Below, piece by piece: positions 6,748 through 63,840 of a stretch of DNA of 64,000 nt. This DNA is from Candidatus Phycocordibacter aenigmaticus (GTDB lineage Bacteria > Patescibacteriota > Minisyncoccia > Phycocordibacterales > Phycocordibacteraceae): positions 122,288-186,287 of the forward strand of contig CP174359.1 of assembly GCA_045401115.1 (NCBI GenBank). The letters run 5' to 3'. Below the pieces are notes generated by a model. The model had not been told where the DNA came from. It searched no databases and saw nothing but the letters and a program-made list of their open reading frames with translations. Position numbers and translations under genes: made by a program. The stretch's first letter is position 1; each line of letters opens with the position of its first letter.

Positions 6748-6805
6748 ATCTTTATATAAGGTTAAGAGAAAATAATAAAAAGATGTGGAGGTGTTATGTC
6801 ATACG

Positions 6806-7778: not shown

Positions 7779-7787
7779 TATACCCTG

Positions 7788-8621: not shown

Positions 8622-8651
8622 AAAACAAAAGCGCATAACTGCGCTTTTGTT

Positions 8652-8972: not shown

Positions 8973-8974
8973 AG

Positions 8975-9451: not shown

Positions 9452-9473
9452 TTACTTGGTATTATAACGTAGT

Positions 9474-9968: not shown

Positions 9969-9992
9969 AAAAGCCATCGTTAGATGGCTTTT

Positions 9993-10280
9993 TTAATTAT
10001 CCGAAAAATCTCCTATCAGTGTGGTACACGATCCTACCCCCATCAATAAAAGAAGTGTGGCGAGTGTTTTAAAGGCGCGGGTTTGCCAAAACTCTTTTTC
10101 CTCAAGAGATTGCGCGTTATTGGCACGTGCAGTGAACGTTTCAAACATGTCGAGAAACCTTCTTCTTATGTGCCCCTCGTGATATTTCTTAGGGAGGTTA
10201 TCATTCGCTGCTCCCTCCTTACTCATACCGGCCTCTTTAACCTTTGATTTCAATTCCCATCGAACGCGCGGTTCCTTCAA
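9993..10280 (-). CDS. Hypothetical small protein with a C-terminal hydrophobic segment
   Basis: 95-aa ORF; no recognisable motif; the start is uncertain. Confidence 0.3.
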   Translation of the reverse strand: MKEPRVRWELKSKVKEAGMSKEGAANDNLPKKYHEGHIRRRFLDMFETFTARANNAQSLEEKEFWQTRAFKTLATLLLLMGVGSCTTLIGDFSDN

Positions 10281-10662
10281 GAATTTTCATCCCCTCCTCT
10301 ACATCATCAGTATTGAGGTCAGGTAGTTTCATCTCTACTGCCTCTTTCAACTGAGCGCGAGTAAGTGAACCTGCTTTCTGAGTTGGCGTCTTTCCTGATC
10401 CTTTATCTTTACCAAGCAGTTTAAGAAGAATACGTGAAGCCGGTGGCTGTTTGAGAATAAAATCAAATGTACGGTCTTCATATACCGTAATGATTGCAGG
10501 AATAATATTCCCCCGCATCTCTTGAGTCTGAGAGTTAAACTGGTTAATGAATTCACCAATGTTAATGCCAGCAGGACCCAGCACGGTACCAAGAGGAGGA
10601 GCTGGTGTTGCGGCGCCTGCAGGTGCCTGAATCTTAATTACTTTTGTTACTTTTTTAGCCAT
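10237..10662 (-). CDS. rplK: Ribosomal protein L11
   Basis: 141 aa; MAKKVTKVIKIQAPAG...PPLGTVLGPAGINI. Confidence 0.93.
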   Translation of the reverse strand: MAKKVTKVIKIQAPAGAATPAPPLGTVLGPAGINIGEFINQFNSQTQEMRGNIIPAIITVYEDRTFDFILKQPPASRILLKLLGKDKGSGKTPTQKAGSLTRAQLKEAVEMKLPDLNTDDVEEGMKILEGTARSMGIEIKG

Positions 10663-47671: not shown

Positions 47672-48772
47672 CTACTTGTTCATTGGCATTACAAGGTAAG
47701 TAAACCCCTTATCAGGAACCTCACTAATAATAAGCGGCTTCCCAACTCCGGAGAATTTAAACACCAAACTATCAGTCACCACTGTACTTAATGCATCAAG
47801 AATATACCGTATATTAAAATTAACTTGGATAGGTTCACCTTCAAGTGCAGCATCAACAGACTCTCTACTTTCACCAACTTGTGTATTAACACCATTTACT
47901 GAAAGCAGTTTACTTGAAGGGTCTAAGTTAAACGCCACCTGCCCCGCCTGGTCGGTTACCACAGCAACCTTTTTTAAAGCCCGTTGCAGGTCTTCAGTAA
48001 GTAATGTCGCTGTGGTGGTGAAATCTTTTGGGATAATTGCAGTGTACTCAGGAAAAGCACCGTCGATCACCCGTGATGTTATAAAATTCCCATCACTCAT
48101 ATAGGTAACCTGGTTTTCACCAACACGAACCTCAACAGTATCAGTCCTCTCAATAACCCGTAAAATATCCGGTATATTACGGGCCGGAAGAAGGATCGAA
48201 TCAATATTATTCTTCACTTTTATATCAGCTTTTATTTCAGATAGACGAAAAGAGTCTGTTGCGGCGGTTATCAACATCCCATCTTGGACTGTAAGAAAAA
48301 CACTCGCTAACTCAGGACGCATACCTGAGGTTGCTGCCGCAAAAACAACACCCTTAAGGGAACGAGAAAATTCCTTCACAGGAAGTGTCAAAGATACCCC
48401 CTCTCCTTCTTTTACACAGGGTAAGGTGGGGAAATCACTCACATCAATAGTGTTTAGTTTTACCTCACCGTGACCAGTAATAATTTTTAATATCCCCTCA
48501 TCACTTTCGAGGGTTATTTTTTCATCCGAAATAGCATTAACTGCCTGACTAAATACATGCGCCGGGACAGCGACATCCCCTTCTTTAACAACCTTTGACT
48601 TTAGAGCAATTTCAACACTCACATCAAGATTGGTTGCTCTTAGTGTTGTTTTATTTTGTGTTGCCGATATAACCACACACCCCAATACTGGTAATGATAA
48701 ATTTTTATTACTCACTCGAGAAACTATTTGAGTTGCGTCTTCTAAATGTTTTTTTAATAATTCTAATTTCAT
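47672..48772 (-). CDS. dnaN: DNA polymerase III beta sliding clamp
   Basis: 366 aa; three-domain clamp pattern. Confidence 0.9.
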   Translation of the reverse strand: MKLELLKKHLEDATQIVSRVSNKNLSLPVLGCVVISATQNKTTLRATNLDVSVEIALKSKVVKEGDVAVPAHVFSQAVNAISDEKITLESDEGILKIITGHGEVKLNTIDVSDFPTLPCVKEGEGVSLTLPVKEFSRSLKGVVFAAATSGMRPELASVFLTVQDGMLITAATDSFRLSEIKADIKVKNNIDSILLPARNIPDILRVIERTDTVEVRVGENQVTYMSDGNFITSRVIDGAFPEYTAIIPKDFTTTATLLTEDLQRALKKVAVVTDQAGQVAFNLDPSSKLLSVNGVNTQVGESRESVDAALEGEPIQVNFNIRYILDALSTVVTDSLVFKFSGVGKPLIISEVPDKGFTYLVMPMNK

Positions 48773-48979
48773 ATACTTTTTATTTTTATACTCTGTGAGA
48801 TGTGTGGATTACAGTTTATATCTTTAAAGTTAAGGCTGTATTCACAAAGGTGTGCTGGGTAACGGTGTGTGTAAGTCTTGTGAATAACAAACCAGTAAAA
48901 CAGAAAAAGTTGTACACAAAACAATTAACATATTTTTTAGATTGGTTATACCGATAGTTATTCATATACTCTTCCACAG

Positions 48980-50327
48980 TTATTTCAACATGCTACGCAC
49001 TTCTCCAATTTCATTTTTGAAATCTTCGTTACCACTAAGGTCTGTTTTTATTTTTTCACAGGCATGAATAACAGTAGTGTGGTCGCGCCCACCAAAGACA
49101 GAACCAATTGCAGGGTATGAGAGATGAAAATCTTCTCGAAGTATGTACATAATTATTTGCCGAGGGCGAACTATTTCGCGTTTTCGTGTTTTTGCATACA
49201 TAGATGCCTCTTCAACACCATAAAACTCAGCAACTTTTCCTATAATGTTTTTCACAGAAACAGAGCGCTTTGGTTTAGTGGTTGATTTAATAACATCTTT
49301 TATGGCGGTATCATTTAACTCACTATTGAGTTGAGTTTGTATAAGGATGGTGTTGAGCATCCCTTCAATCTCTCTAATATTACCGGTAATTGCCAAAGAA
49401 AGGTGTTCAATAATTTCGTCGCTTAAATTAAGGCCAATTGAGTTTGCTTTGGTTTTAATAATAGCCATACGTGACTCATGGTCGGGTTCTTGTATTGCAA
49501 CAGTCATGCCAGAGACAAAACGTGACTGGAGGCGGTCAGTAAGATCAGGAATAAGATTAGGGTGTTCGATCTGATGAACACACAATTTGTTTGTTACAGT
49601 CATGTAGTGTGTTGAAGAGATGGAAAAACTCTTCCTGAAGCGTCCCTTTTTTCGAGAAAAACTGTATATCATCCATAATTAATACATCATAGGCACGATA
49701 CTTCTCTTTAAAAGTGGGGATGGTGCGATTATTAATCGCATTCATAAATTCAAAACCAAACCGTTCTGCGGTAAGGTAGTACACTTTTTTTTGAGCGACT
49801 GTTTTTTTAATATGATTCCCCACACTTTGTATTAAGTGTGTTTTTCCACGCCCTGTTTCTCCATAAATAAAGAGTGGGTTATATGAAATGCCTGGGTTTT
49901 TTGCTACTGCACTTGCCCCAGCGAATGCAATTTCATTAAATGGACCAACCACAAAAGTATCAAATGTATATCGCGGGTTAAGGTTATCTGATCGATTAAC
50001 ATAATAATCAGCTAACGGGAGTTCAGAACCACTCTTTTCTTCAGTAGGAACTTTTTCAGGCACTCGTTTCGGTTCTTGTTTTGAAACAACATATTCAATA
50101 CCGCGCACTGTATCTACAAACCCTCTGATGGTTTTTAAAATAAGCTTTCCGAAACGCTCGGAAAGCCATTCTTTAGTAAGTTGATTCGGTACACCAACGT
50201 ATACCACTCCCCCTTCTATACGGATAATATGTGTTTCGCCAAACCACATTTTAAAACTTGCTGGGGAAATTGAGAGTTCAATGTTGGTCAAAGTGTTTTC
50301 CCAAAGCTGTTTTGTATCAAGTTCCAT
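48980..50327 (-). CDS. dnaA: Chromosomal replication initiator DnaA, interrupted by an apparent +1 frameshift at a CCC run near 49557-49560 (ORFs 49557..50327 and 48980..49672 overlap)
   Basis: N-terminal ORF has GETGRGKTHL and MDDIQFF...KQIVCSSDRTP*; the other frame continues PNLIPDLTDRLQSRF...and the C-terminal DNA-binding domain. Removing one C restores canonical SDRTP-NLIPDLT-DRLQSRF spacing. Confidence 0.85.
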
Positions 50328-50546
50328 AATAAAACGTAGAGTGAATGAGTTTCCCTATTATACCTGTGTGGAAAAGAAAATAAACATGAGGAAAAACCAA
50401 GTATATGTTAGTAACCTGTGTACAACCTGTGCACAACCTAATTTCAGTAAAAAATAGTAGAATACAGCTTTGACAATTCCACCTCACATGGTAATATCGC
50501 GCATACGTACTCTCATTAGAGACAGAGACGATATAATACATATTGT
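50328..50546. promoter_or_regulatory. Probable oriC / dnaA-rpmH divergent control region with DnaA-box-like motifs
   Basis: TGTGGAAAA (50366-50374), TGTGTACAA and TGTGCACAA (~50424-50448) resembling TGTGGATAA; an AT-rich stretch; flanked by dnaA and rpmH. Confidence 0.6.
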
Positions 50547-50684
50547 ATGCCAAAGAGAACCTATCAACCTAAAAAAAGAAAACGTGCTAAAACTCACGGT
50601 TTTTTATCTCGCTCAAAAACTCCTTCAGGCCGTCGCGTACTTGCTCGTAGGCGTCAAAAAGGTCGCGCAAAGCTCGCTGTATAG
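50547..50684 (+). CDS. rpmH: Ribosomal protein L34
   Basis: [45 protein letters not shown] (45 aa; below the ORF-track length cutoff). Confidence 0.9.
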
Positions 50685-50693
50685 TCAGACACT

Positions 50694-51014
50694 ATGTTGT
50701 CTAAAAAGGCGCGACTTTCTCGAGATGATTTCCCTAAAAAGCGCGCAACAAAGCGGTACCCTCTCTCGTGGGGTGCTGTTTTAGTTTACCCACACAATCA
50801 TTTTAAGGCAGCAGTAGTGGTTTCAAAAAAAACACTTAAAAAAGCGCACGAAAGGAATAGGCTCAAACGTCGTGTTTATGCAGCTCTCGAGTCTTTATCA
50901 ACAGAAGTACTACTGGTAAAAGTGGTAGTACTTCCCCGCTCAGAGGCGCTTACTGTACCTTTAGGTGCACTAAAAACTGACCTTGAACACGTGTTAGGCA
51001 AAGAAATGCACTAA
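50694..51014 (+). CDS. rnpA: RNase P protein component
   Basis: 106 aa; basic; position after rpmH. Confidence 0.8.
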   Translation: MLSKKARLSRDDFPKKRATKRYPLSWGAVLVYPHNHFKAAVVVSKKTLKKAHERNRLKRRVYAALESLSTEVLLVKVVVLPRSEALTVPLGALKTDLEHVLGKEMH

Positions 51015-51057
51015 AAACATTTTAGTTATCGTATTTCTGGGTTAGAATGCACTCAAT

Positions 51058-51798
51058 ATGATTGGACTTTTTGACACATTTATTTACGAGCCTATTTACA
51101 ATGCGCTCGCGTTCATTATTAACATTACCCCGGGTGCAGATATTGGAATCGCGATCATTGTCCTTACGTTAATTATTAAATTCATTCTTTTTCCGCTCTC
51201 GCTTAAGGCAGTCCGCACTCAAGCAGCAATGCGTGAAATTGATCCCGAGTTAAAAAAAATCAAAGAAGAGTTTAAAGAGAACAGAGAAGAGCAGGCGCGG
51301 CGGACCATGGCGCTTCTTAAGGACAAAAAAATCAACCCGTTTGCGAGTTTCCTCCTCATTCTGATACAGCTCCCTGTCATTATTGGACTCTATTTTGTCT
51401 TTTTAGGTAATGGTGGCGGCATAGGTTTTGACCCAGCTGTCCTTTACTCTTTTATTTCTGTTCCAGAGAATGTGTCCTTTAACTTTCTTGGGATTATTGA
51501 CCTTTCAGGGCGCAGTATTGCCCTTGCTGCACTTGTAGCGGCGACACAGTTTGTGAACGCACGCCTTATGATGCCGAACGCTCCAGACGCCGAAGCAGGT
51601 ACCCTTAAGGGTGACTTAGCAAAGAGTATGCATATGCAGATGCGTTGGGTGTTCCCTATTGTTATGGGAGTGGTGGCGTATGTTATTTCAGCAGCCATTG
51701 CACTATACTTTCTTATATCGAACCTCTTCCAACTTTTCCAAGAACTCTACGTAAAACATAATCAAAGCACTGATGCCAATGGAGAAAGTCAACATTAA
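51058..51798 (+). CDS. yidC: Membrane protein insertase YidC (short form)
   Basis: 246 aa; multi-TM; conserved position after rnpA. Confidence 0.8.
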   Translation: MIGLFDTFIYEPIYNALAFIINITPGADIGIAIIVLTLIIKFILFPLSLKAVRTQAAMREIDPELKKIKEEFKENREEQARRTMALLKDKKINPFASFLLILIQLPVIIGLYFVFLGNGGGIGFDPAVLYSFISVPENVSFNFLGIIDLSGRSIALAALVAATQFVNARLMMPNAPDAEAGTLKGDLAKSMHMQMRWVFPIVMGVVAYVISAAIALYFLISNLFQLFQELYVKHNQSTDANGESQH

Positions 51799-52237
51799 AG
51801 AATATATAACCACTCTTGTTCAAAAACTTGGAGCGACCGTCGCTGAAGTAGATGTTTTTGAGGATGCGCGCGGCACAGTGGTTAATCTTACTGTTACTGA
51901 TAATGCACATGCACTCATTGGTCCTCATAAAGAAACACTACGCGCCCTCAATCATATTGTTCGGCGTGTTACTGAAGGGCAGTCTGAGGATGAGGTACCT
52001 ATACGAGTGGATATCAATAACCATGAAACCAACCACCTTCGTTTTTTGGAGAACCAAGCACAACAGCTTGCCGAGAGGGTCGTAACCTTAAAACAAGAGG
52101 TTGAAATGACGCCAATGAACCCATACGACCGCATGATCGTACATGAAACCATACGTGACATAGAAGGAGTAAGCACTCAGTCTGTCGGCGAGGGGCGACT
52201 CCGTCATGTTGTTATCCAACCGGATACAGATCAATAG
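51773..52237 (+). CDS. jag: Jag/KhpB-like RNA-binding protein (KH + R3H domains)
   Basis: 154 aa; R3H-like NPYDRMIVHETI. Confidence 0.7.
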   Translation: MPMEKVNIKEYITTLVQKLGATVAEVDVFEDARGTVVNLTVTDNAHALIGPHKETLRALNHIVRRVTEGQSEDEVPIRVDINNHETNHLRFLENQAQQLAERVVTLKQEVEMTPMNPYDRMIVHETIRDIEGVSTQSVGEGRLRHVVIQPDTDQ

Positions 52238-52241
52238 TATA

Positions 52242-53225
52242 TTAAAAATTTAGTCGGAAACTCGTTTCTGCCTGTTCAAATATTTGTTGCAGGTTTTTTA
52301 ATTCAAATGAAATAGGCGCACTTCCTCCTCCGTCTCCTGAGCGGCGAAGCGTGAGCTCCCGTTCAGTGCGCCCGGTATTTTTAGTTACCTCGCCATTAAC
52401 ACGCCATTCGTATTCAGGTGTAGTAATATCTTGCACAAACAAAGGAAAAGCCTGGAAGGTCACTTCGTCTTCATTTAGATTTTTTATATTTGTAATAGCG
52501 CGGTCAAATCGAAGCCCAAGAAGCGGCATATATTCATATACGACTATCTCCGGACGAACAGGGGTCACTGTGACGGTATGAGTTGCTTGTTGAACACCGT
52601 CCGGACTCTGAACAGTCACTGATACGTCAAAATTATTCTCAAATTGCGGTGAATCGATTGAGATTGAGTGTACCCCTACCCCAGTGCGTACTGGGCGTGG
52701 AGACCCGTTTATAAACCAACTATATATAAGATTGTCTGGATTTAGGCGACTCCCATTTTGTATAAAGTAAGGGATCGCTGAAAGTATCGTCCTACTGCTC
52801 CCAGTGGGTAGTGGACGCCCTTCATAAAAAGGAGGAGTATAGGTATCTCCTTCCCATTCAATAGAAACTAATGCTGGACGAAGACGGAGCTGTTTTTCTG
52901 CCACCGGCGCACCATCTTGTGAAAGTGTAAGGTTTATTGTCGTTACTGACCCACTTTCACCCAACTGAACTTGAATAGCATCACGTCCAACTCCTTGGTC
53001 AACAATACTGCCGTTGACGCGCCATATAAAAAGAGCGCTTCCAAGTGTGGACGATATATTTTGCGCTCGCACTGTTATCACAGACCCCGGTTCTGGGTTT
53101 CTAGGAATCGTTTCCAAACTTAACCCGGTCTCTAAATTGGGAACAAAAACCGCATATACTAAAAGGGGTGCCATGAAAATGGTTACAGCAAGTGTGGCAA
53201 GGAGTAAGCGCATGGTTGATTTCAT
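52242..53225 (-). CDS. Hypothetical secreted beta-rich protein, last gene of the T4SS-like cluster
   Basis: 327 aa; signal/TM MRLLLATLAVTIFMAPLLVYAV. Confidence 0.45.
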   Translation of the reverse strand: MKSTMRLLLATLAVTIFMAPLLVYAVFVPNLETGLSLETIPRNPEPGSVITVRAQNISSTLGSALFIWRVNGSIVDQGVGRDAIQVQLGESGSVTTINLTLSQDGAPVAEKQLRLRPALVSIEWEGDTYTPPFYEGRPLPTGSSRTILSAIPYFIQNGSRLNPDNLIYSWFINGSPRPVRTGVGVHSISIDSPQFENNFDVSVTVQSPDGVQQATHTVTVTPVRPEIVVYEYMPLLGLRFDRAITNIKNLNEDEVTFQAFPLFVQDITTPEYEWRVNGEVTKNTGRTERELTLRRSGDGGGSAPISFELKNLQQIFEQAETSFRLNF

Positions 53226-53279
53226 ACCTCTGTACCCATTATAGAGGCAAAACTGCTCCTCGGGCAGCAGGTGTGGGGA

Positions 53280-55088
53280 CTATTCTTCATTATCTTTATT
53301 TCTTCGTCCAATAGCCAAGAGTTGTGACGGGTCTGATGTGATTATTTGATCTTCAGTGTATGATGCAATGATTTTAATCGCTACATGTTTTAGGCCCGCA
53401 AAGAATATCCCCTCACCTACAGTGGACTCAAGTAGTAAGTATTTTTCTTCTTCAGTGAGGTTAAAGGTTTTTTGTACTGCATCAATAGATGACGGTGATT
53501 GTTTAAGAAGAAGCTGGATAGATGAGTTGGTAATCATTGGCATACCATAGGGTGAGCGGAGGAAGTCTTCTACGTCTTGGGTAATAGTAGCGAGCCCTAA
53601 GTAGTATTTACGTCCTCGTTTTGCCATAGAGTAAAGGAAAGAGGCGGTATCTTCTGACTTCATCATCCACCACGCCTCGTCGATCACCAGGAGACGTTTA
53701 CGCAACTCTTTACGTACTGCATTCCAGATATAGTGCATCACGATATACATAGCAACAGGTTTGAGCTCATCCTCCATGTCACGTACCGAGAACGCCACAA
53801 ACTTTTTATTAATGTCCACGTTAGTAGGGCGGTTGATGAACCCTGACCAGGTGCCTTTTGTATATTTTGAGAGGCGTTGCACTAACGACTCTGACCCTTC
53901 CATACCCGCAAGCACGAGTTCAAAATCAGAGAGTAGTGGCGGCTCCATACCAGTGAAATCTGCGTCACCAGTAATATCTTTCAATGCATAGGTTTCAGTA
54001 ATGGCGCGGTCAATAATCGCGTCTTCTTCAGGTGAAAGTCCACCAAGCATGATACGAAAGAGTCCCACCAATGTCACAATGTTTGACCGCAGTACGTCTG
54101 CCGGCGCTTCATCTTCTCGAGGAGCTGGAAGATCAAAAGGGTTAATATGATTCTCTGAAGAGAGTGAAATATCAAAGAAACGCCCACCCACTGCATTCGC
54201 GAGGTACTCGTACTCACTTTCCGGATCAATCACCAGCACCTCGGTGTCGAACATGAGGGAACGCAGGATCTCAAGTTTAGTGGCATAACTTTTACCAGAA
54301 CCTGATTTTGCGAACGTTACCGAGTTATAGTTTTCAAGTGAGAAGCGGTCAAATAAAATAAGTGATGCGTTATGACGGTTAATACCATAGAGAATGCCGC
54401 GGTCTGAAGTGAGGTCAAATGAAATGAATGGAAAAAGACTGGAAAGTGGTGAAGAATTGAGTTTTGAGTGTACTCTCAGCTCATCTTTCCCGGTAGGAAT
54501 AACACTTTTGAATCCTTGTTCTTGCTGGAAGAGCGCCGGCTTTACATACACGAGCTTAGCGTCAAGAATTGAGCGTATTTCTGACTCAGTTTTATCAAGA
54601 TCCTCCGAATTATTACCATAGATGGTTATATACACTCCCACATCAAAAATACGCTCCTGCGCCTGCTGTAGCTTGTCACGCAACGCCTCAATGTCGCGGT
54701 AGGCAGTGTCAAGCACCGGATCGCGCACCAACCCTTTCTCTTCCCTACTCATTACCTGGCTTTGAATTTCTGCTACTTTCTTTTGAAATTTACGCAGTAC
54801 TGCCGCGGTATCAATAGGGTGTACGTAAATTGATACATCGAACACCTTATCAAGGTTAATAATAGGAGAGAACCAACTCTCAGAGAGAAAACGCGGGTAT
54901 GAGATTACATAGAATGTACGCGCGAGTTTATCACCTAAGTTCATCTCACGCGGCGTTATCTTGAGCGCACTTGGCGCGATGATGTCGGCAAAATCCAGCT
55001 TTGCAGCTTCATAAATATCTTTTGGTAAAAACGGCGTAATATCGTCATCACCTTTCTTTTTCCCCGGCAAAAAATCAAAAATTCCCAT
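53280..55088 (-). CDS. virB4: VirB4/TraC/TrbE-family type IV secretion ATPase, C-terminal ATPase part (602 aa). In frame with the upstream 224-aa ORF and separated from it by a single TAA.
   Basis: Walker A AKSGSGKSYATK; Walker B LLVIDEAWWMM; overall VirB4 pattern. 55095 and 55088 ends share the same reading frame. Confidence 0.8.
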   Translation of the reverse strand: MGIFDFLPGKKKGDDDITPFLPKDIYEAAKLDFADIIAPSALKITPREMNLGDKLARTFYVISYPRFLSESWFSPIINLDKVFDVSIYVHPIDTAAVLRKFQKKVAEIQSQVMSREEKGLVRDPVLDTAYRDIEALRDKLQQAQERIFDVGVYITIYGNNSEDLDKTESEIRSILDAKLVYVKPALFQQEQGFKSVIPTGKDELRVHSKLNSSPLSSLFPFISFDLTSDRGILYGINRHNASLILFDRFSLENYNSVTFAKSGSGKSYATKLEILRSLMFDTEVLVIDPESEYEYLANAVGGRFFDISLSSENHINPFDLPAPREDEAPADVLRSNIVTLVGLFRIMLGGLSPEEDAIIDRAITETYALKDITGDADFTGMEPPLLSDFELVLAGMEGSESLVQRLSKYTKGTWSGFINRPTNVDINKKFVAFSVRDMEDELKPVAMYIVMHYIWNAVRKELRKRLLVIDEAWWMMKSEDTASFLYSMAKRGRKYYLGLATITQDVEDFLRSPYGMPMITNSSIQLLLKQSPSSIDAVQKTFNLTEEEKYLLLESTVGEGIFFAGLKHVAIKIIASYTEDQIITSDPSQLLAIGRRNKDNEE

Positions 55089-55094
55089 ATATGC

Positions 55095-55769
55095 TTATTG
55101 ATTGTTAAGTGAAATCGGCTTTTCCAGTTCCCCTGGGTTGAATTCCTTATATAAAAGTTCTATCACCTCCTCGGTGCCCAGTGGCGCTAGACGTACCCCT
55201 GTACGCGCCAACCCTTGTTCAACAACCGACATGCGTTGCTCAAGTTGGGTACGGTACTCTTCAAAACCTACATCTTTCTCCTCAGCAGAAAGTTTACTAT
55301 TACCAAAAAAGGTACTCGCAATATTTTTCTTTACGTCCAAAATAGGTGGATTATACGGAATTACAATAAAGAATCGCTTCTCCATGATATTTACCCGTTC
55401 AGTGATAGAGCGAATAAACTCAATATATTCACGTACTTGAATCTTCATCAACTCTTCTGTTTGTTCGCGTAGACGCTCTTCAAGGAGTGCGATATACGGC
55501 CGTATGTCGAGCCGGCGTGATTGCACAAAAAGTTGTACTGAGAAATCAAGCGAATTGAGGAAGTTTTGGAATTGAGACAGAATCGCCATTTGTTCATCTT
55601 GGCTCTTTAAAGCAAAGTTAAGGCTCGATGCCAGCATAACCCCCACCAAGGTGTCATCCTTCAGTACCATTAAGCCACCGCGCACCTCTTTAATAGGTAC
55701 AAAGTCTTGAGCGGCTTTTGTTTTTTTTGTATTCTGCGCCACAGCTTTTATTGTAACGTATAAAAACAC
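55095..55769 (-). CDS. VirB4 N-terminal domain-like protein (224 aa), in frame with the downstream VirB4 ATPase ORF
   Basis: N-terminal VirB4-like region; the two ORFs together give ~828 aa, the usual VirB4 length. Confidence 0.55.
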   Translation of the reverse strand: MFLYVTIKAVAQNTKKTKAAQDFVPIKEVRGGLMVLKDDTLVGVMLASSLNFALKSQDEQMAILSQFQNFLNSLDFSVQLFVQSRRLDIRPYIALLEERLREQTEELMKIQVREYIEFIRSITERVNIMEKRFFIVIPYNPPILDVKKNIASTFFGNSKLSAEEKDVGFEEYRTQLEQRMSVVEQGLARTGVRLAPLGTEEVIELLYKEFNPGELEKPISLNNQ

Positions 55770-55879
55770 ACCGACGGTGTTTTTTACGATACGTAATCAC
55801 AGTATGTCTGTATTGGTATTAAAACACCGACAGCCTTGCATGACTATCGGTGTACTCATCAACCTCTTTTTTATAGAAT

Positions 55880-56263
55880 CTAAACCTTTCCTCCTTGGGT
55901 GGCTTGCTGTTTGGCGTTATTGTATACACCCTGTATTCCCTTGTACACTGCCCACGCTAAGAAAAGCTCAAACATGCCGGCACGTATTAATTCTCCAACA
56001 TCACCTGAGCTCACCTGTACAGTGTCATAAGAAAAAAAAGACGCATCCTCCCCTTCAATATCAGCTCCATTTTTTAAATGCTCAATCCGTCCTGGATCGT
56101 TTTCTGGGTCATAGGTGTTACGCAGTCTATGGTCATCAAAAGTGCCATCAAACGCGTCTGCAGCAACAGGTCCAATAGCCATGGGGTAAAAAATAGCTCC
56201 AATCATGGTCCCTCCCATTATTGATTGGTTGAAAGTTAGATTTTTACTTTTCTCTGCTCCCAT
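55880..56263 (-). CDS. Hypothetical small protein with a C-terminal hydrophobic helix
   Basis: 127-aa ORF upstream of virB4 on the same strand. Confidence 0.35.
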   Translation of the reverse strand: MGAEKSKNLTFNQSIMGGTMIGAIFYPMAIGPVAADAFDGTFDDHRLRNTYDPENDPGRIEHLKNGADIEGEDASFFSYDTVQVSSGDVGELIRAGMFELFLAWAVYKGIQGVYNNAKQQATQGGKV

Positions 56264-56359
56264 AATGAATATAATATACTACATTTTGTATATATTGTCA
56301 ATACTCTCTCGAATAGGAATTATTGACATTAACATATATTACTGTATTATCACAAAAGT

Positions 56360-56746
56360 ATGAGATTAGGACGATTACGTTTTTTTGCTCCCCTTTCTAA
56401 CTCGGTTATTGAAGGAGTTAGTAAGAGCGCTGCCCCTGGTGGAATACTTAATAAGGGTGGACAAAAACTACGAGAAGCTGCTCCTTCAATTAAGAATTCA
56501 GGAGACTTACTCGGTCTCACTGTAGGTGGTGCAGCACTGTTAGCTTTATCAAACAAAGACTCACGAGAATTCCTATTTGATTCTAGTGAAGGTGCATACG
56601 ATTTTTTTACTGGAAGCCGAGAAGGGTTTGTGGAAGCGGCTGGTACCACTGAATTATGGACCACCCCTGAGATGGGTGTGATTTATGCGTTTATTGCAAT
56701 AGCTATAGCAGATCGTCTTGGTTTCCAACCTCTAAAGAAAGTTTAA
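56360..56746 (+). CDS. Hypothetical small protein (one TM near the C-terminus), divergent from the T4SS-like cluster
   Basis: 128-aa ORF; the AT-rich divergent promoter region 56264-56359 has TTGACA/TGTCAA palindromic elements. Confidence 0.35.
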   Translation: MRLGRLRFFAPLSNSVIEGVSKSAAPGGILNKGGQKLREAAPSIKNSGDLLGLTVGGAALLALSNKDSREFLFDSSEGAYDFFTGSREGFVEAAGTTELWTTPEMGVIYAFIAIAIADRLGFQPLKKV

Positions 56747-56750
56747 ACTA

Positions 56751-57182
56751 CTAGCGTTGCGATTCATCGGAATAAATACTTTCTTTAATATCTAGGCTCC
56801 ACGCCAAATCCTTGAGTTTATTTGATGTAGCTGCTGGGGCGTATTTCCCTGGATCGTCTTCTTTTTTTAGATCCCCCTGATTTACAATTTTTGGTTTTGT
56901 CGCACGTTCTTTATCCCAAATATATAACTGATCTTTGGTATTAAATTCTACCGCCGCTTGAAGTACCTCAATAAACGGTCGGTCGTTTACCTTATAAAAT
57001 GCGAGCGCCAGACCAAGTATTGCTATTGGCCCTCCTACAAGGATAGCGAGCCACAGTGGCAGTACTATCCACATAGCTACCAAGAAACCAACTCCTCCGG
57101 CAAGGTAGACAAACTGCGTCACCGTGAGCGGTCCGAATATCTTATCTTCTACTTCAATAAACTGTGGTACTTGAAAACGCAT
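56751..57182 (-). CDS. PrgI/VirB3-like small membrane protein (2 TM)
   Basis: MRFQVPQFIEVEDKIFGPLTVTQFVYLAGGVGFLVAMWIVLPLWLAILVGGPIAILGLALAFY. Confidence 0.5.
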   Translation of the reverse strand: MRFQVPQFIEVEDKIFGPLTVTQFVYLAGGVGFLVAMWIVLPLWLAILVGGPIAILGLALAFYKVNDRPFIEVLQAAVEFNTKDQLYIWDKERATKPKIVNQGDLKKEDDPGKYAPAATSNKLKDLAWSLDIKESIYSDESQR

Positions 57183-57226
57183 ATATGTAGGCTATTTCTT
57201 TAGCATACCATTGTGGTATGCGAGTT

Positions 57227-58483
57227 CTATATCCCTTCCCCATTCTCAAGGTCACTCTCGGTTTTTGTGTCATCAGTCGGCTCGTATAATCTGAGGGACC
57301 ACAAAGTTAAATCGTTTTTATTAAGAAACGTTACATAATTTCCATCGTAACTTACCTGCGGACGCCAAACATCAATTTGGGCGTCAACTTCGTCTGACGG
57401 TAGGGCAAGCAACATGCTGACACCATCTGAGATAGTAAATAGCCATAGGTCATCTTCAAAAACCGTTTGTCCTAAAAGCCAATGAACCGTCGCATTGCTA
57501 GAGAGTGTTTCTCGAGGAACTCCACAGGCGAGGTGTTCCTCGTTAGGAGTAAATGCGCATTTTGATGCAATAGTATTAAGCGGTGTTAGGAAGATTTGTT
57601 CTTCTTGGGTGTCGTACACTGAAAGAGACGTGTCGCGTTCTCCGCCACTCATTACTATATATCGTCCACTCGGACTTACCTGTGCTGTTAAGCTTTCTAC
57701 TCCACCGACAATATGAGTGAGATTGCTGTTAGTAATTTGGTACACTGCACCCGCAATTCCTGAGGCAGGGGCGGTGTGTACATACAAAGCGGCATCACTT
57801 TGTAGTGGTATCCATGAACGAATACGAGAAGAAAAGATAGTGCGTTCATTTTCTCCATTCACGTCAGAAAGTGTTATAACACTTCCATCTTCTGTTTCGT
57901 ATACTGCGAGTAGATTTTCTCCTGCTTGATCTATACTTGCGCGTTGCCACTGTGACATAAATGAACCACCGAAAGCGTTTTCCTCGTTCTCTTCGGAGTT
58001 AATAGTAGTGTAGAAGTTTTCTGTATCACCGTCTTCGTTAAAATAACGAATAATAAAATTATTTTCATCTATCCAAGTTACATCATGTATCTCAGGCACA
58101 GTCGTATTTGAGATACGTGTCGCAGTGCGACCTTCAGCAGGCACATCGTATATGTGCCCGGTAGCACGGTCAATATATCGAATAATAGGTTCTTCTTCTG
58201 CATTCTCATATATAAATGCACCCACTGTCGGTTGGTTGCTCACTTGACGAAGCTGTGGCACAGGTCGTGTGTCTTCTGTTTTTGGTACATCTGCACCACC
58301 ACCTGTACCTCCTGAGGGGGTAGTATCTCCTGAGCCAAATGGAAAGAGGCCGCTAAAGAAACCTCCTGAATCTTCCCCGTTTGAATCGAAGGTATTTCTT
58401 GATGAATCTAAATAAAACGCGATAAACGCAGCACCTAACACGAGAACGAGCGCTATAAAAAATAAAATAATAGTCCGTCGCAT
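57227..58483 (-). CDS. Membrane-anchored secreted protein with a predicted beta-propeller-like ectodomain
   Basis: 418 aa; N-terminal TM IILFFIALVLVLGAAFIAFYL, then G/S-rich linker. Confidence 0.45.
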   Translation of the reverse strand: MRRTIILFFIALVLVLGAAFIAFYLDSSRNTFDSNGEDSGGFFSGLFPFGSGDTTPSGGTGGGADVPKTEDTRPVPQLRQVSNQPTVGAFIYENAEEEPIIRYIDRATGHIYDVPAEGRTATRISNTTVPEIHDVTWIDENNFIIRYFNEDGDTENFYTTINSEENEENAFGGSFMSQWQRASIDQAGENLLAVYETEDGSVITLSDVNGENERTIFSSRIRSWIPLQSDAALYVHTAPASGIAGAVYQITNSNLTHIVGGVESLTAQVSPSGRYIVMSGGERDTSLSVYDTQEEQIFLTPLNTIASKCAFTPNEEHLACGVPRETLSSNATVHWLLGQTVFEDDLWLFTISDGVSMLLALPSDEVDAQIDVWRPQVSYDGNYVTFLNKNDLTLWSLRLYEPTDDTKTESDLENGEGI

Positions 58484-58552
58484 ACGTATAGATATTGTAC
58501 CAGGTTTATCCCCTCTCGTTGTTAATACAAACGGAGTTTTGTATTAAATCAA

Positions 58553-59122
58553 CTACTCAATTGGTTCGCGGTACGGGTCAACGGTTTTGTACTGCGTTTT
58601 AGGTTGTGGTGATCCATCTTCTTCACTGAATGCATCCACTTCTACCTCTTCTAGTTTTTCGCGTCGTGAAGTGCCGAGGGTTGGTTCTGTGAAAGTAGAT
58701 ATTTTTTCATCGGCAACTTTCGGCTGTGCTGGTGTATTGTCTTGAGACGGTTCAAGAGGTTGTGCCGGCACTGGCTTTTCTTGTTTTTTCTCTTCAAGTT
58801 GTTTCCTCTTTTCATCAAGATACACCCGGAACGGCTTAAACAGCATGTTATTAACATCATTCAATACCACACTGTAGAGAGCGCTATTTTGCTCAAGTGC
58901 TTCTTGAAGCATCTCTGAAAATCGTGCGGTGGGTACTAGACCTAAGAACACTGCTTCGACAGCGTTGGCAATATTCCCTAGCTCATCAAAATGGAGATTG
59001 TGTTTTGTGCGGAATGCACTAAATGCGTCAATATACTCCTCCGAGTTCATGTACTGCTGAACTAGGGGCGATGTTTTCGAATACGCTTCTTTTATTTGTT
59101 GTGCCGTGGGAATAAGTGCCAT
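58553..59122 (-). CDS. Hypothetical protein
   Basis: 189-aa ORF within the T4SS-like cluster. Confidence 0.4.
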   Translation of the reverse strand: MALIPTAQQIKEAYSKTSPLVQQYMNSEEYIDAFSAFRTKHNLHFDELGNIANAVEAVFLGLVPTARFSEMLQEALEQNSALYSVVLNDVNNMLFKPFRVYLDEKRKQLEEKKQEKPVPAQPLEPSQDNTPAQPKVADEKISTFTEPTLGTSRREKLEEVEVDAFSEEDGSPQPKTQYKTVDPYREPIE

Positions 59123-59139: not shown

Positions 59140-61491
59140 TTAATTTTCATCATCTGGTCCTCGGTCAATGTTTTCCTGGTTTGGTGGTGTATTTGGTGGC
59201 TGAGGTGACGGTTGAGGATCTGTGCGGGTAGTACCCATATCCGCGAGTTCTTCTTGAGCTACAGGTGCTTTGCGTCCACGCTCCACAGCTTGTGTAGATT
59301 CGTTATATTTCTTCACGACCTTAGTTTGAGCGCGCATACTGATATTTTGCATCTGCGCTTCAGAAATTTCTCCCTCGCGTGGTTCTTTTCCTGGTTCAGC
59401 TTGGCGACGGTTTATTGCAGAAAATTCTTCTACATTAAGTAGTTGCGCCATTTCAGGTTGTTCAAGCACCTCAGGTGGGAGCGCTGCAACTTGACTGGTA
59501 CCATCTGGACCATTGGTACGCAGTTTATCTACCAACATCTTTGCAGAACGTCTATCCTGGGCAAGAGCCATAAGATCTCTTTTTTCTTCTGCTCGTTCAG
59601 CTAGTTTTTCTTGTGTAAATTCAACACGATCACGTTGCTTCTCAGTTAACCGACCACGTACCGCTTCTTGGGTCAGTCCTTCAATTGCGGTGACCACTTT
59701 CTGTAGCTGTTGCGTTTGTGTAGCATCAAGTTGTTGTGAATCTTCTGTTGGTGTACCCGAAGCTCCGGTTTTCGTTGGTGGTCTTTGGTTTTGAGTATCT
59801 ACGCGGCGCTTTGCACGCTCAACCTCAGATGGATTTTTAGAAGCACCAACCACTTGTGCAAGCGCTTTACGCTTACCTGTTTTTGTAACTTCTGCTTTTT
59901 TCTCTTCCTGAGTAAGCTCTTCATTTTTACGTTCTTTTTCTCGTTGATCTTCAGAAAGGTTTGAAAAGGCATCAACAGCATGATTATAGGCTGCTTGTTT
60001 TTCTTCTTCAGGAGCGTCATCTTGGCTGAGTACCGCTGCATATTTTGTTCGAGCCTGATCCCACTCATCTTTTTTAGCTTTTTCGTACTCTTTGTCTTGA
60101 CGTCCAGTGCGTGAGAAGGACACTGGGCCCAATTCATCACGAAGTGGTTTAAGGGTAAGCGCGTCCCCAAGGTTTCTTTTCCCTCCGGTAAGCGCCAGAG
60201 GAGTACCCCCCACCCATTTAGCTGCTCCTCCAAGAGTTTTTCCGACTGCCTGAGCAGCGGTTGGTATCACTTTTTTATATGCGCCATAGAACTGACCAGT
60301 GGTTGGTGGTGTGAACTCTTCTTGTCGTGCAATTCCCATTGAAATTTTCATAGCAAAATAAAGAAGGCCAAAACCAAGCGCGTATATTACTACCAGATCA
60401 AGCGCAGCTGACCATCGAGTGCCGCCAGCTGCTGAAATAAATGTTGGATTTGCAATTAGGTCTACCAATGTTCCGTCTCCAAGGGCTACCGCTGAAGCAT
60501 TTTCCAGTACTTTAAGTGCAGCTGCGGCAAACAAGAGAAATACCACAGGGAATACTGCTTGACTGTACAGCGCTGACCACCACGCCTTCCCAAACTTTTG
60601 TATACCAGGAATATCAATGAACGCGAGTATCCCTATAGGAGATGTCATAAGGAGAATTACTATCACAATAAAGCGCTGTATAAAAAGCGCTGCCATTGAA
60701 AAAAATATAAAAAATGTTGCTCCCATGAACACCACTCCGATAAGTCCCATCATGAAAAGCATAGCCCCATCCATTTTACTTAAGTCTTCATCAAGTTCGT
60801 AGATTGATGCAAGTTTTGTGGCATTCATAAATCGCGTCGTTATTGCGCGACCTCCTTGGAGAGCACTTGTGACTTCGTTATCGCCAACACGCTCTTCTGA
60901 GTCAATATCGATAACCAAGGCTTCTTGGTAAATCATACGTGACGTAAAATGTGAGGCGTCTAGTATGGCGCCGGTAAAGAAATAGCTAAAATTCACCAAA
61001 AGAGCAGCAATAATAATAGTCACAATTATCCGCCCTACTTTTTGTGCAGAGCCAAGAATGATATTAATTGATGCCCAAATTAACCCACCAATAAAAACGA
61101 GATTCACAAGATCGCGCAGCACAATCCAAATTGCGCTTATAGAAGATCCAATACCTCCACCTACCGCAAGTCTTTCCGAAGCTTGTATAAGCCATCGGGT
61201 AATTGTCCAATCAAAAAATCCCGCACCAATGCCAAGAAAAACACCGCCCATTTGAAGCATCATGCCGGCGATTCCGGCACTATTGTTACATTGCCCTCCT
61301 CCAACAAGCGGTATATTTCCAACCGCACACGTGAGAAGTGCGGTGAGTATAATTAATATAAAAATACCCACCGTTCCAGCGGCGATGAGCAACAAAATAA
61401 TTGATTTACCTCCTCCTTTTATTGCACCCCACATATTGTTATTGTGACACAGTTTCTTCCTCTTCGGGATCGCAATAGGTTGCTGGGTCAC
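59140..61491 (-). CDS. VirB6/TrbL-like polytopic membrane protein with a long charged coiled-coil C-terminal region
   Basis: 783 aa; ≥8 TM helices in the N-terminal 420 aa, then a K/E/Q-rich tail. Confidence 0.55.
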   Translation of the reverse strand: MTQQPIAIPKRKKLCHNNNMWGAIKGGGKSIILLLIAAGTVGIFILIILTALLTCAVGNIPLVGGGQCNNSAGIAGMMLQMGGVFLGIGAGFFDWTITRWLIQASERLAVGGGIGSSISAIWIVLRDLVNLVFIGGLIWASINIILGSAQKVGRIIVTIIIAALLVNFSYFFTGAILDASHFTSRMIYQEALVIDIDSEERVGDNEVTSALQGGRAITTRFMNATKLASIYELDEDLSKMDGAMLFMMGLIGVVFMGATFFIFFSMAALFIQRFIVIVILLMTSPIGILAFIDIPGIQKFGKAWWSALYSQAVFPVVFLLFAAAALKVLENASAVALGDGTLVDLIANPTFISAAGGTRWSAALDLVVIYALGFGLLYFAMKISMGIARQEEFTPPTTGQFYGAYKKVIPTAAQAVGKTLGGAAKWVGGTPLALTGGKRNLGDALTLKPLRDELGPVSFSRTGRQDKEYEKAKKDEWDQARTKYAAVLSQDDAPEEEKQAAYNHAVDAFSNLSEDQREKERKNEELTQEEKKAEVTKTGKRKALAQVVGASKNPSEVERAKRRVDTQNQRPPTKTGASGTPTEDSQQLDATQTQQLQKVVTAIEGLTQEAVRGRLTEKQRDRVEFTQEKLAERAEEKRDLMALAQDRRSAKMLVDKLRTNGPDGTSQVAALPPEVLEQPEMAQLLNVEEFSAINRRQAEPGKEPREGEISEAQMQNISMRAQTKVVKKYNESTQAVERGRKAPVAQEELADMGTTRTDPQPSPQPPNTPPNQENIDRGPDDEN

Positions 61492-62908
61492 TTATGATGG
61501 TGAGGAGTGTGTCATATTCCTCATCTACTACCGCAATGTCAGTGTCCGTATGAGTAATCCCGGTATCAATAAGTGCACTGAAGTTCGTGGATATGTTACT
61601 TGCTTCATCTATGGTGCGTGCCTGTTCTATTTCGCTACGCAATAGTTGTAAGTCTCTCGTGTTTGATGAAGCGACTGCAAGATTACTTTCGTAATACGGA
61701 ATAAGTCCATCAGCGTTTTCAATGCCGCGACGGGTATTTTGTACGCGGTACGTTTCGTAGTAACAAGTTCGCACTTCTTCATCGGCCTCTTCAAGTGCAG
61801 TAATAATGTTATTCACCGCATTTCGGTACCGCTCTTCAGTAGAAAGACTGTCACGTGCTTGGATACGTGCACTTTCCCGGATACGTTCAGTAAGAGCGTT
61901 ATCAGATTCATTAGTGAGCGCCTCAACATACGAGCCTTGAATCAGACGGTTTTCATTATCAACATATGTACGCGCCGATGAACCCGAACGACTTGAAAGG
62001 CCACGCAACCCACTAAGGCTAGTAAGTGCTTCTTGAGCGAGTTGTGCGATCAGTGCATTAACGATTTCATTAATCTCATCGGCAAGTTCAAGTGATTCGA
62101 AACCTGACCCAAGCACTTCCCCTAGCTGTTGGTTGATCTGTGTACCAGGTGTGACAATTTCATGTACCAAACATTCAGGCTCCTCACCTTCTTTAACAGG
62201 CTCCTCACTATATTTTATACATTCGCGTTTTGAGAAAAACCCTTCACCGAAATTAAGGTAGGCAAGTTCTTCATCTTGTCGCGCATTAATCCGTGCTTCG
62301 AGTTCTCCTAGAGATTGTCCATATGCACCATATGGGTTGTTTTGGCTTTCTGCATGAAGCCGAAACCATGTTTCCCAGCCGCCTTGACTAAAATCATTGA
62401 AAAACCCGTCGATATTATCGGCAACATCACCAAGCGAGCAGCGAATACGCTCACGGAACGGTTGCCGTTGTAACGCAAGACTAAGACGAATTTCTAATTC
62501 AAATGGACTACAAATAAACCCAAGGTCGGTGCCTTCAATGAAATCAAGCGCTGTGTGATCAGCCACCTCCCCTAAGAATTGATTTAGGTTACTTACAAAC
62601 GATGGTCCCCCTTCAAACCCACTATTTATCCAGTCGATAATACTCTGCGTCATCGCTGCGATCATCGCTTCCTTTAAGGCAAACGTCACTGCGTCTAGGA
62701 CTGTCTCCTTTGTGGTTAGTGTGGCAGTGACTCCAGCGGTAGTAGCGCTTGATGCTGCAGTTGCTGCTATGAATCCAGCAGAAGGCCCCACTAATACTAC
62801 TGGTAACGCGGCAGCATGTGACGTATTAATCGGTAAAACGAATGATGAAAAAGATGTCGCCAGAAGAAGGGCTACGGCTACGATTTTTTTTGAAAAAGAT
62901 GACTTCAT
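61439..62908 (-). CDS. Secreted hypothetical protein (489 aa), possible pilus/adhesin-associated component
   Basis: Signal peptide MKSSFSKKIVAVALLLATSFSSFVLP; A/T/S-rich then acidic regions. Confidence 0.45.
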   Translation of the reverse strand: MKSSFSKKIVAVALLLATSFSSFVLPINTSHAAALPVVLVGPSAGFIAATAASSATTAGVTATLTTKETVLDAVTFALKEAMIAAMTQSIIDWINSGFEGGPSFVSNLNQFLGEVADHTALDFIEGTDLGFICSPFELEIRLSLALQRQPFRERIRCSLGDVADNIDGFFNDFSQGGWETWFRLHAESQNNPYGAYGQSLGELEARINARQDEELAYLNFGEGFFSKRECIKYSEEPVKEGEEPECLVHEIVTPGTQINQQLGEVLGSGFESLELADEINEIVNALIAQLAQEALTSLSGLRGLSSRSGSSARTYVDNENRLIQGSYVEALTNESDNALTERIRESARIQARDSLSTEERYRNAVNNIITALEEADEEVRTCYYETYRVQNTRRGIENADGLIPYYESNLAVASSNTRDLQLLRSEIEQARTIDEASNISTNFSALIDTGITHTDTDIAVVDEEYDTLLTIISDPATYCDPEEEETVSQ

Positions 62909-63840
62909 GATGATGTGGTTATAGTAGTAAATATTTGGTGTGCTTCAGCAAAACGATCTTCGGCAGCAATAAATGCATCAAGTGCAAGTAGTGTTCGGTA
63001 CGGATCTTCGTAGTGCGTGCTCATAAGCGTAATTGCATATGTAGCGGCGCTAATGGAATTAATCATTTCAAGATGAGTTCCAGAGACTGTAGTAGGAGTA
63101 GGAATTGCGAGGAGATCATTAATAATCTCAGCATAGAGCGCAATATTGGTTGTAAACTGTCGAAGGTGTATTAAGTCGCCTGTGTCGAGTAGTTTATAAA
63201 GGGTCACTGTTTCATGTTCAGGCACCGCCTCTGCTTTAGTTAATACTTTTTGTACTTCACTCGCGTATGTTGCTATTGCATCGCCGCTTTCATTATTATT
63301 CACCTGTATATCCTCAAAAGTATATTGCGGCGGTTCGATGTCCAACACATTTCGCTCTACAACTGATTCAATAGCTGTCTGCAACTCTGCTTCGCTTAGT
63401 TCCCCGTTTTCTTTAAAAGAAAGGTACGCGGCAAAAAGTTCTTTCCCGAGTGCTTCAATTGGTTCGGTCCCCTCTGGCGCAACATATGGCTTTTCACTTA
63501 TTGGTTCAGTGCCATGTACGGCCGGGTCAGAACCCTGCGCTACTTCGTCTCCATCCGAGACACCATCCCCGTCCGAGTCAACATTGTTAGGGTCGGTGCC
63601 GAGAAGCACCTCTTTCCAGTTAGGGATACCGTCTCCGTCTGAGTCTGCGCGCGCGGTGATGCTGGTACCTTGTTGGTTGATCGTTAATACTTCGTTGTTT
63701 TCATTCTGCCTTATCTCATCCGTGGCTTGAGGAGCGGCAGTAAAAAAGGCAAGCGCTATCACGCCAATGGCAACTACACCAAACAGCACGAGCATTCCGA
63801 AATTCTTCCGGTTTTTCATAGTACCAGTATACCTGCACAC
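62905..63840 (-). CDS. Membrane-anchored protein with thrombospondin-type-3-like Ca-binding repeats
   Basis: 311 aa; TM MLVLFGVVAIGVIALAFF; DSDGDGIPN ... DSDGDGVSDGDE repeats. Confidence 0.45.
   Translation of the reverse strand: MCRYTGTMKNRKNFGMLVLFGVVAIGVIALAFFTAAPQATDEIRQNENNEVLTINQQGTSITARADSDGDGIPNWKEVLLGTDPNNVDSDGDGVSDGDEVAQGSDPAVHGTEPISEKPYVAPEGTEPIEALGKELFAAYLSFKENGELSEAELQTAIESVVERNVLDIEPPQYTFEDIQVNNNESGDAIATYASEVQKVLTKAEAVPEHETVTLYKLLDTGDLIHLRQFTTNIALYAEIINDLLAIPTPTTVSGTHLEMINSISAATYAITLMSTHYEDPYRTLLALDAFIAAEDRFAEAHQIFTTITTSS

Follow-up and report, generated by a model that had tools for sequence, protein, structure and literature searches.

An in-frame TAA in the type IV secretion locus of Candidatus Phycocordibacter aenigmaticus very probably marks the boundary between a trsD-like gene and a short virB4 gene

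Background

When two open reading frames (ORFs) follow one another on the same strand and in the same frame with a single stop codon between them, the question arises whether one broken gene or two intact genes are present. Such a pair lies on the minus strand of a stretch of 64,000 nucleotides (nt) of Candidatus Phycocordibacter aenigmaticus (assembly GCA_045401115.1, contig CP174359.1, positions 122,288 to 186,287), which is referred to as the window in its full length and from which all positions given below are counted. The pair is part of a type IV secretion system (T4SS) gene cluster and consists of ORF A, which resembles the N-terminal part of the ATPase VirB4, and ORF B, which carries the ATPase domain. 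A first interpretation made without database searches (the sequence-only reading) had described the two as a VirB4 interrupted by a single in-frame TAA, and had offered a genuinely split VirB4, a recent nonsense mutation, a sequencing error, or stop-codon readthrough as possible explanations. According to the comparative analysis described here, the stop codon is very probably the normal boundary of two conserved genes, one encoding a TrsD-like VirB4 N-terminal piece and the other a short VirB4 ATPase. This split of the gene is ancient, common to the pGO1-type MPF-FATA systems of Firmicutes, and kept throughout Patescibacteria, and the location of trsD next to virB4 in Patescibacteria has already been published (PMC12102498). 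By comparison with related loci, the shared frame and the single TAA of the window are a coincidence.

Results and discussion

Junction of the two reading frames

The window sequence was read over positions 54900-55300, and ORFs were listed for positions 52000-59000. On the minus strand, the junction (reverse complement of 55110..55070) reads CTT AAC AAT CAA TAA GCA TAT ATG GGA ATT TTT GAT TTT, i.e., L N N Q stop A Y M G I F D F in translation, and translating positions 55769..53280 in a single frame gives 830 codons with one internal stop. The description of two ORFs in one frame on the minus strand, parted by one TAA and two sense codons, was confirmed by this sequence. ORF A, the trsD-like gene (55095..55742, minus strand), encodes 215 amino acids (aa) from a GTG at 55742 and is annotated as PF26593 ('TraC-like') and by similarity to NCBIfam TrsD/TraD, the latter match staying below the curated cut-off (see below). 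Although the frame is open from another GTG at 55769, from which a protein of 224 aa would result, GTG 55742 is likely the true start, as it is used in the NCBI record of an identical protein and fits the alignment of the homologues. The stop codon of the trsD-like gene is the TAA at 55097-55095, which is the very codon that had been described as the in-frame TAA. It is followed by a spacer of 6 nt (GCATAT, 55094-55089) that contains no Shine-Dalgarno (SD) motif, and then by the ATG (55088-55086) of ORF B, i.e., virB4 (53280..55088, minus strand), which encodes a short monoderm-type (MPF-FATA-like) VirB4 ATPase of 602 aa.

Conservation of the two genes in Patescibacteria

A protein search with ORF A, covering 5.8 billion proteins, returned at least 8000 significant homologues. 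The best 120 of these all belonged to Patescibacteria, had a length of 212-253 aa, and were 72-100% identical to ORF A, with the match at 100% identity assigned to 'Patescibacteria group bacterium UBA2163'. For the analysis of the junction itself, 80 species-representative loci from GTDB genomes were scored by script, and the 75 loci in which both genes were present were considered informative. The ORF A homologue ended in a stop codon in all 75 (TAA in 54, TAG in 20, and TGA in 1), and a sense codon at this place in relatives, which the sequence-only reading had recommended looking for, was consequently found in none. The ORF B homologues of the 75 loci start with an ATG that aligns to residue 1 of ORF B, followed by the motif M-[GAS]-[ILF]-[FL]-[DSN]-.-[FIL], and are 599-626 aa long in most complete loci. 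Between stop and ATG, the spacer varied from 1 to 565 nt, with at most 10 nt in 46 of the 75 loci and more than 40 nt in 22, and its sequence was not conserved among loci. The frame offset between the two genes was 0 in 24, 1 in 29, and 2 in 22 loci, and was distributed as 13, 22, and 18 when the 53 loci with spacers of up to 40 nt were considered. As frame 0 is not enriched and neighbouring genes on the same strand share a frame in one out of three cases, the in-frame layout of the window can be ascribed to chance.

Identity to the listed relatives, taken from the best tblastn segment, was 72-88% for ORF A and 67-91% for ORF B, and both products are, as judged at the sequence level, under strong purifying selection. 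An additional comparison came from another strain with 85% DNA identity that is represented by a Logan contig of 1405 nt (L085, SRR28998482_830883). This contig encodes the identical 215-aa protein, with all differences in the trsD-like gene being synonymous, and ends the gene at the same position with TAG.

The genomic context of the two genes was conserved as well. In the window, a prgI/virB3-like gene (56751..57182, minus strand; 143 aa, PF12666 PrgI at 1e-9) comes first, followed by ORF A and ORF B (57182-56751, 55742-55095, and 55088-53280 in the direction of transcription). The same order of PrgI, ORF A, and ORF B is repeated in 75-76 related loci, with a PrgI homologue as the immediate upstream neighbour of the trsD homologue in 76. 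On the 3' side of virB4, a conserved gene of 327 aa with an N-terminal signal or transmembrane segment was recognized from the ORF listing and from synteny (52242..53225, minus strand). Homologues of this gene were found in 63 loci, and in almost every one of these that was inspected, virB4 is immediately followed by the homologue; in locus L009, the homologue is located upstream and on the opposite strand.

Longer VirB4 proteins were also observed among the related loci. The VirB4 of L074 (L074:4632-8423, 1264 aa) contains an intein with a LAGLIDADG endonuclease within residues ~303-927, shortly before the match to the P-loop ATPase (Intein_splicing 1.7e-19, LAGLIDADG_3 3.6e-21). In L027 (L027:2197-4668, 824 aa), VirB4 carries a C-terminal extension of ~220 aa without a Pfam match, and the VirB4 ORFs of L009 and L069 exceed 1100 codons.

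Identity of the two products

ORF B was identified as VirB4 by several searches. Against Pfam, it matched P-loop_TraG (1.6e-24) and also AAA_10, and its translation contains a Walker A motif (AKSGSGKS, residues ~260-267) as well as a Walker B motif (LLVIDE, residues ~466-471, reading LLVIDEAW in the translation). In a PDB sequence search, residues 230-585 aligned to residues 9-389 of 4AG5, a construct of 392 residues (E-value 1.4e-43), and residues 255-551 aligned to residues 446-735 of TrwK of R388 (7O41). The NCBIfam model NF045971 (CD1110-family VirB4-like ATPase) was matched with 374.4 bits at a cut-off of 325 (E-value 1.1e-111), yet ORF B covers just positions 181-733 of the 752 positions of this model; the first 180 positions are absent from it and are supplied by the separate ORF A. 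On NF045975, ORF B occupies positions 286-893. On TIGR00929, it occupies positions 266-726 in an alignment that begins at ORF B residue 80, from which residue 1 would be extrapolated to approximately position 186.

ORF A matched the complementary part of the same models, namely positions 84-248 of the 894 positions of NF045975 (E-value 3.4e-11) and positions 2-118 of NF045971 (E-value 2e-5). The TrsD/TraD model NF041427 was matched at an E-value of 4.6e-7 with 29.9 bits, for which the curated cut-off is 200 bits. When 22 members of the ORF A family were searched against NCBIfam, 20 matched NF045975, 19 matched TrsD (best E-value 2.9e-16), and 17 matched NF045971. TIGR00929 (VirB4_CagE) was matched by six of the 22 and always at positions ~3-181 of 792, and family members also matched TrbE models. 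PF26593 (TraC-like) was present in the precomputed annotation of the identical 215-aa protein and of all 120 best homologues, while a search of the 224-aa form of ORF A and of two homologues against a local Pfam library gave no match even at E-values of up to 10. PDB sequence searches with ORF A by itself and with a profile of 22 sequences, Firmicutes homologues included, returned no meaningful match.

Based on the NCBIfam profile coordinates, ORF A and ORF B are colinear with single-chain VirB4 and do not overlap. The proposal that the two ORFs together make up a VirB4 of full size was borne out by these coordinates, which place ORF A on the N-terminal ~180 positions and ORF B on the remainder. 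The homology of ORF A to the ~180 N-terminal residues of canonical VirB4 is thus indicated by profile matches and the literature rather than by a structure, as structure prediction with AlphaFold2 and PDB searches of ORF A were unproductive. The idea that ORF A might be a duplicate of the N-terminal region of ORF B was also considered and was rejected, as BLASTP between the two gave nothing (E-value > 4).

Fused and split forms outside the related loci

More distant relatives were collected in a full-library hidden Markov model search with an ORF A profile, which yielded 2882 cluster representatives (clustered at 50% identity) at an E-value of at most 0.001. Among the best 150 of these, 149 proteins were 102-443 aa long and none of the 149 had an ATPase-sized extension. 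The sole natural fusion among the best 150 was a protein of 797 aa (P0331), in which a short linker connects an ORF A-like part (residues 5-214) with a second part that shares 59% identity with ORF B from ORF B residue 35 onwards. The linker comprises 17 residues and replaces the first ~34 residues of ORF B, and the junction of the fusion differs from that of the window. As the fused form is rare, the split form is regarded as the norm. In the sense of a 'Rosetta stone', the fusion supports a predicted physical partnership of the TrsD-like and VirB4 products.

A tblastn search of ORF A against 72,556 plasmids gave hits in 354 records, mostly large Bacillus plasmids along with plasmids of Geobacillus, Clostridium, and others. 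Annotated examples of these Firmicutes plasmids encode a PrgI family protein, an ORF A homologue of 262-345 aa, and an ATPase of 620-636 aa, and this order was seen on Geobacillus, Bacillus, Clostridium, and Halobacillus plasmids. The ORF A homologues are labelled 'hypothetical', 'TraC family protein', or 'TrsD', and their genes are separate from those of the ATPases, with which they either overlap by 11-14 nt or from which they are 12 nt apart. In an alignment, a hydrophobic N-terminal extension was present in four Firmicutes homologues and absent from all 18 Patescibacterial sequences. On the Bacillus thuringiensis plasmid pIS56-233 (L082, positions 5800-10600), the site where the ATPase is expected has ltrA, the gene of a group II intron reverse transcriptase/maturase, as its only listed gene. 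The gene table of this plasmid, from which pseudogenes are omitted, has no entry for VirB4, which may be interrupted by the intron.

Alternative explanations for the stop codon

Of the explanations offered at the outset, the genuinely split VirB4 holds, as stand-alone homologues of both products exist and all 75 informative loci contain two genes; an interruption by an in-frame TAA, as which the locus had originally been described, does not agree with a stop codon that is conserved in each of these loci and is followed by a conserved ATG. A recent nonsense mutation, i.e., pseudogenization of a VirB4 of ~828 aa, would be compatible with two ORFs that are in frame with only three codons (TAA and two sense codons) between them and that match canonical VirB4 in combined size and domain order, and a fused relative does exist in the form of P0331. 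A lesion of this kind would, however, have to coincide with the place where every informative relative has its stop, at frames and spacers that vary from locus to locus. It would furthermore have to produce a protein within the narrow length range of the best 120 homologues as well as an ORF B that begins at the conserved ATG and N-terminal motif. With a strain of 15% DNA divergence keeping the identical 215-aa protein and using TAG to end it, with the strong purifying selection indicated for both products, and with just one fusion among 150 distant cluster representatives, whose junction is a different one, we consider a nonsense mutation extremely unlikely. An error of sequencing or assembly would seem conceivable in this contig, since the dnaA gene is frameshifted near position 49570 by an insertion of 1 nt relative to an intact DnaA of 448 aa. 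The stop codon at issue is another matter, because a chance substitution to TAA at exactly the stop position of every relative is implausible, because the NCBI record, the closest of the listed relatives (~88% identity to ORF A), and the 75 representatives agree in gene lengths and stop position, and because the strain with the identical protein has TAG at this position. The probability that the stop codon is an artefact is thus regarded as practically nil.

Programmed readthrough or another form of recoding, by which a TrsD-VirB4 fusion would be made beside the separate proteins, is suggested by the in-frame layout with a single stop that occurs here and in ~11 other loci, and the natural fusion P0331 indicates that a fused form can be functional. 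The frame relation was not conserved, however, and with frame 0 in only 24 of 75 loci, or 13 of 53 at short spacers, no support for a conserved readthrough was obtained. The genetic code is standard, as each of the three codons TAA, TAG, and TGA serves as the stop of long ORFs in the window (40, 14, and 10, respectively), and no conserved structure or sequence context was found downstream of the stop, the spacer being variable in sequence. TAA is, moreover, the most efficient stop codon in bacteria. Programmed readthrough is therefore judged to be very improbable. Equally little credence is given to a low level of readthrough of the TAA that would produce a covalent TrsD-VirB4 fusion here and in the ~15% of related species with an in-frame single stop; if it did take place, the product would be functionally equal to P0331, and split and fused VirB4 would be mixed in one secretion machine.

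Several observations weigh against two partner genes of the kind proposed, and in particular against their assignment and coupling. Strain L085 encodes an identical TrsD but no intact virB4 behind it: past the first ~8 codons of virB4, the contig continues with an unrelated gene in opposite orientation, i.e., either virB4 has been lost or relocated in this strain or the short contig is chimeric. As evaluated from sequence scores, ORF A would be a distant relative of TrsD and not a curated member of the family, its 29.9 bits being far below the NCBI cut-off of 200 bits. Its profile matches nothing in the PDB by sequence, and an AlphaFold2 model of ORF A, based on an alignment of 44 sequences with 72-100% identity, was unusable (mean predicted local distance difference test score 44.8, predicted template modelling score 0.33). 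Without an N-terminal transmembrane segment, the Patescibacterial TrsD-like protein may also take a route to the membrane that differs from that of Firmicutes. Lastly, the translational coupling that we infer below has to be viewed against the 22 of 75 relatives with spacers of more than 40 nt.

Taken with the conservation data, the assignment of the TAA to the end of a trsD-like gene that precedes an intact virB4 has a bearing on annotation, as in-frame ORFs split by one stop can mimic a broken gene and yet be a conserved split. Additionally, colinearity with single-chain VirB4, the fusion P0331, and the tight spacing of at most 10 nt in 46 of 75 loci add a small amount of support to the view that TrsD represents the N-terminal subdomain of VirB4 in detached form and acts in complex with the ATPase.

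Expression and proposed mechanism

A terminator-like hairpin and a TACAAT box were recognized by sequence inspection at positions 55750..55780 (minus strand), the terminator-like site being apparent on both strands. The hairpin occupies positions 55780-55768 and is followed by the -10-like box TACAAT at 55755-55750, 7 nt upstream of GTG 55742. Together, the two elements could possibly constitute a promoter of its own for a leaderless trsD-virB4 transcript. Many start codons in the window have a TAnAAT-like box (e.g., TACAAT, TATAAT, or TAGCAT) at around -7 to -12, which suggests that leaderless mRNAs or mRNAs with very short leaders may be widespread in this organism.

With respect to translation initiation, the sequence-only reading had named homologues that are naturally two separate genes with their own ribosome-binding site as evidence that would speak against an interrupted gene. 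The separate genes were found throughout the related loci; a ribosome-binding site was not, as there is no SD motif before ORF B. SD-like motifs precede only 5 of the 64 long ORFs in the window, and SD-like 4-mers precede 2 of the 75 ORF B homologues, relatives with spacers of several hundred nt included. As SD motifs are nearly absent genome-wide and in long-spacer relatives, the missing SD motif is uninformative with regard to coupling.

Beyond the gene structure, conservation, and homology observed, we infer the following course of expression. The trsD-virB4 pair would be co-transcribed, possibly as a leaderless mRNA from the -10 box directly upstream of trsD, and after termination at the TAA, ribosomes would re-initiate 6 nt further on at the virB4 ATG. 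Re-initiation appears to be the simplest route for an ORF B that has no SD motif and begins 6 nt past the TAA, to which this arrangement lends weak evidence. The TrsD-like protein would then join VirB4 non-covalently as its extreme N-terminal subdomain, where its partner would be the PrgI/VirB3 homologue encoded upstream, and would probably help the ATPase to dock on the membrane complex that contains PrgI/VirB3. In genomes with few SD motifs, translation of virB4 might strictly need termination-reinitiation after trsD, which is a milder version of the readthrough proposal and is likewise considered very unlikely; if this were the case, the stoichiometry of the TrsD and VirB4 halves would be fixed by it.

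Neighbouring features of the window

Between prgI and trsD, the window contains a gap of ~1 kilobase (55770-56750), whereas the corresponding distance in relatives ranges from ~15 nt to several hundred nt. Two minus-strand ORFs (127 and 104 aa) and two plus-strand ORFs (133 and 128 aa) are located in this gap, and for none of the four was a homologue found in the 80 related loci. The 127-aa ORF is preceded by a promoter-like site (TTGACA-17-TATATT, 56301-56273), and the stretch as a whole may be a lineage-specific insertion. Upstream of the cluster, three large ORFs of 783, 489, and 311 aa are located at positions 59140-63840 (minus strand). For the 783-aa and 489-aa ORFs, no Pfam match was obtained, and bacterial TSP3 repeats (1.9e-14) were recognized in the 311-aa ORF; the three may encode further envelope or T4SS-associated proteins.

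On the other side, the genes dnaN, dnaA, rnpA, yidC, and jag/R3H directly abut the T4SS cluster (47672-52237). The dnaA gene (48980-50327, minus strand) is frameshifted and appears as two ORFs, one of 256 aa that comprises DnaA_N and the greater part of the ATPase domain, and one of 230 aa with the rest. At the break (~49557-49585), the window has one extra A (CGAACAC versus CGACAC), whereas the intact DnaA of 448 aa reads ...SSDRHPNLIP.... This intact protein comes from an independent assembly and is identical over the C-terminal ~200 residues and, except for the two codons located at the shift, also over the first 256 residues. Comparison of the two sequences points to an indel from assembly or sequencing, or else to a lesion specific to this strain, as the most likely cause. 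A programmed +1 frameshift at CCC-TAA was considered as well and rejected, since the otherwise identical intact DnaA simply does not have the extra A.

Comparison with known systems

In the TrsD/TrsE and TraD/TraE systems (TrsD of pGO1/pSK41, TraD of pIP501), the gene of a small protein resembling the VirB4 N-terminus comes after that of the VirB3-like PrgI/TrsC and immediately before that of a VirB4 ATPase of ~600-650 aa, as is the case here. Differences concern the low score of ORF A (29.9 bits against the family cut-off of 200), the N-terminal transmembrane helix of Firmicutes TrsD/TraD, which the Patescibacterial protein does not have, and the location of the system, which in the window is chromosomal, near the origin, and, according to PMC12102498, not relaxase-linked, unlike pGO1-type systems. 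In the main text of Guglielmini et al. 2014 (PMC4027160), TrsD is not mentioned.

Relative to canonical VirB4 (A. tumefaciens VirB4, R388 TrwK, TIGR00929), ORF A and ORF B are colinear, with a combined length of ~817 aa compared with 823 aa in TrwK and with conserved Walker A and Walker B motifs; the difference is that the chain is divided into two products after the first ~180-215 residues. The same colinearity, without overlap, applies to the long monoderm forms (CD1110 family, NF045971; Mbov_0397 family, NF045975), and on TIGR00929 ORF A and ORF B are separated by an extrapolated gap of a few positions. Among solved proteins, ORF B is most closely related to the VirB4 of Thermoanaerobacter pseudethanolicus (4AG5/4AG6), of which the solved part is the C-terminal ATPase domain only. 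This protein is presumably ~600 aa long and of the same 'short' type as ORF B.

A role of the detached N-terminal piece close to the membrane would be in line with what is known of the N-terminal domains of VirB4. According to a 2025 review (PMC12857230), these domains connect the protomers, are inserted into the membrane, and interact with VirB3 and VirB8, the latter contacts being those of the solved Gram-negative systems. In Patescibacteria, TrsD has been described as the most abundant T4SS component, as remotely homologous to the VirB4 N-terminus, and as mostly adjoining virB4, with 2,272 TrsD homologues counted, 1,664 of which were associated with virB4 (PMC12102498). A TrsD homologue is listed as essential in Ca. 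Southlakia epibionticum, as far as the work of Wang et al. 2023 is related in PMC12102498. Patescibacterial T4SS clusters are often located near dnaA (PMC12102498), and the cluster of the window agrees with this published dnaA-adjacent arrangement. From the Patescibacterial T4SS described by Quinonero-Coronel et al. 2025 (PMC12102498) and Wang et al. 2023, in which PrgI/VirB3, TrsD, and VirB4 are encoded next to each other near dnaA/oriC as they are here, the locus differs in nothing substantive, its particularities being the additional ~1 kilobase between prgI and trsD and the frame shared by trsD and virB4.

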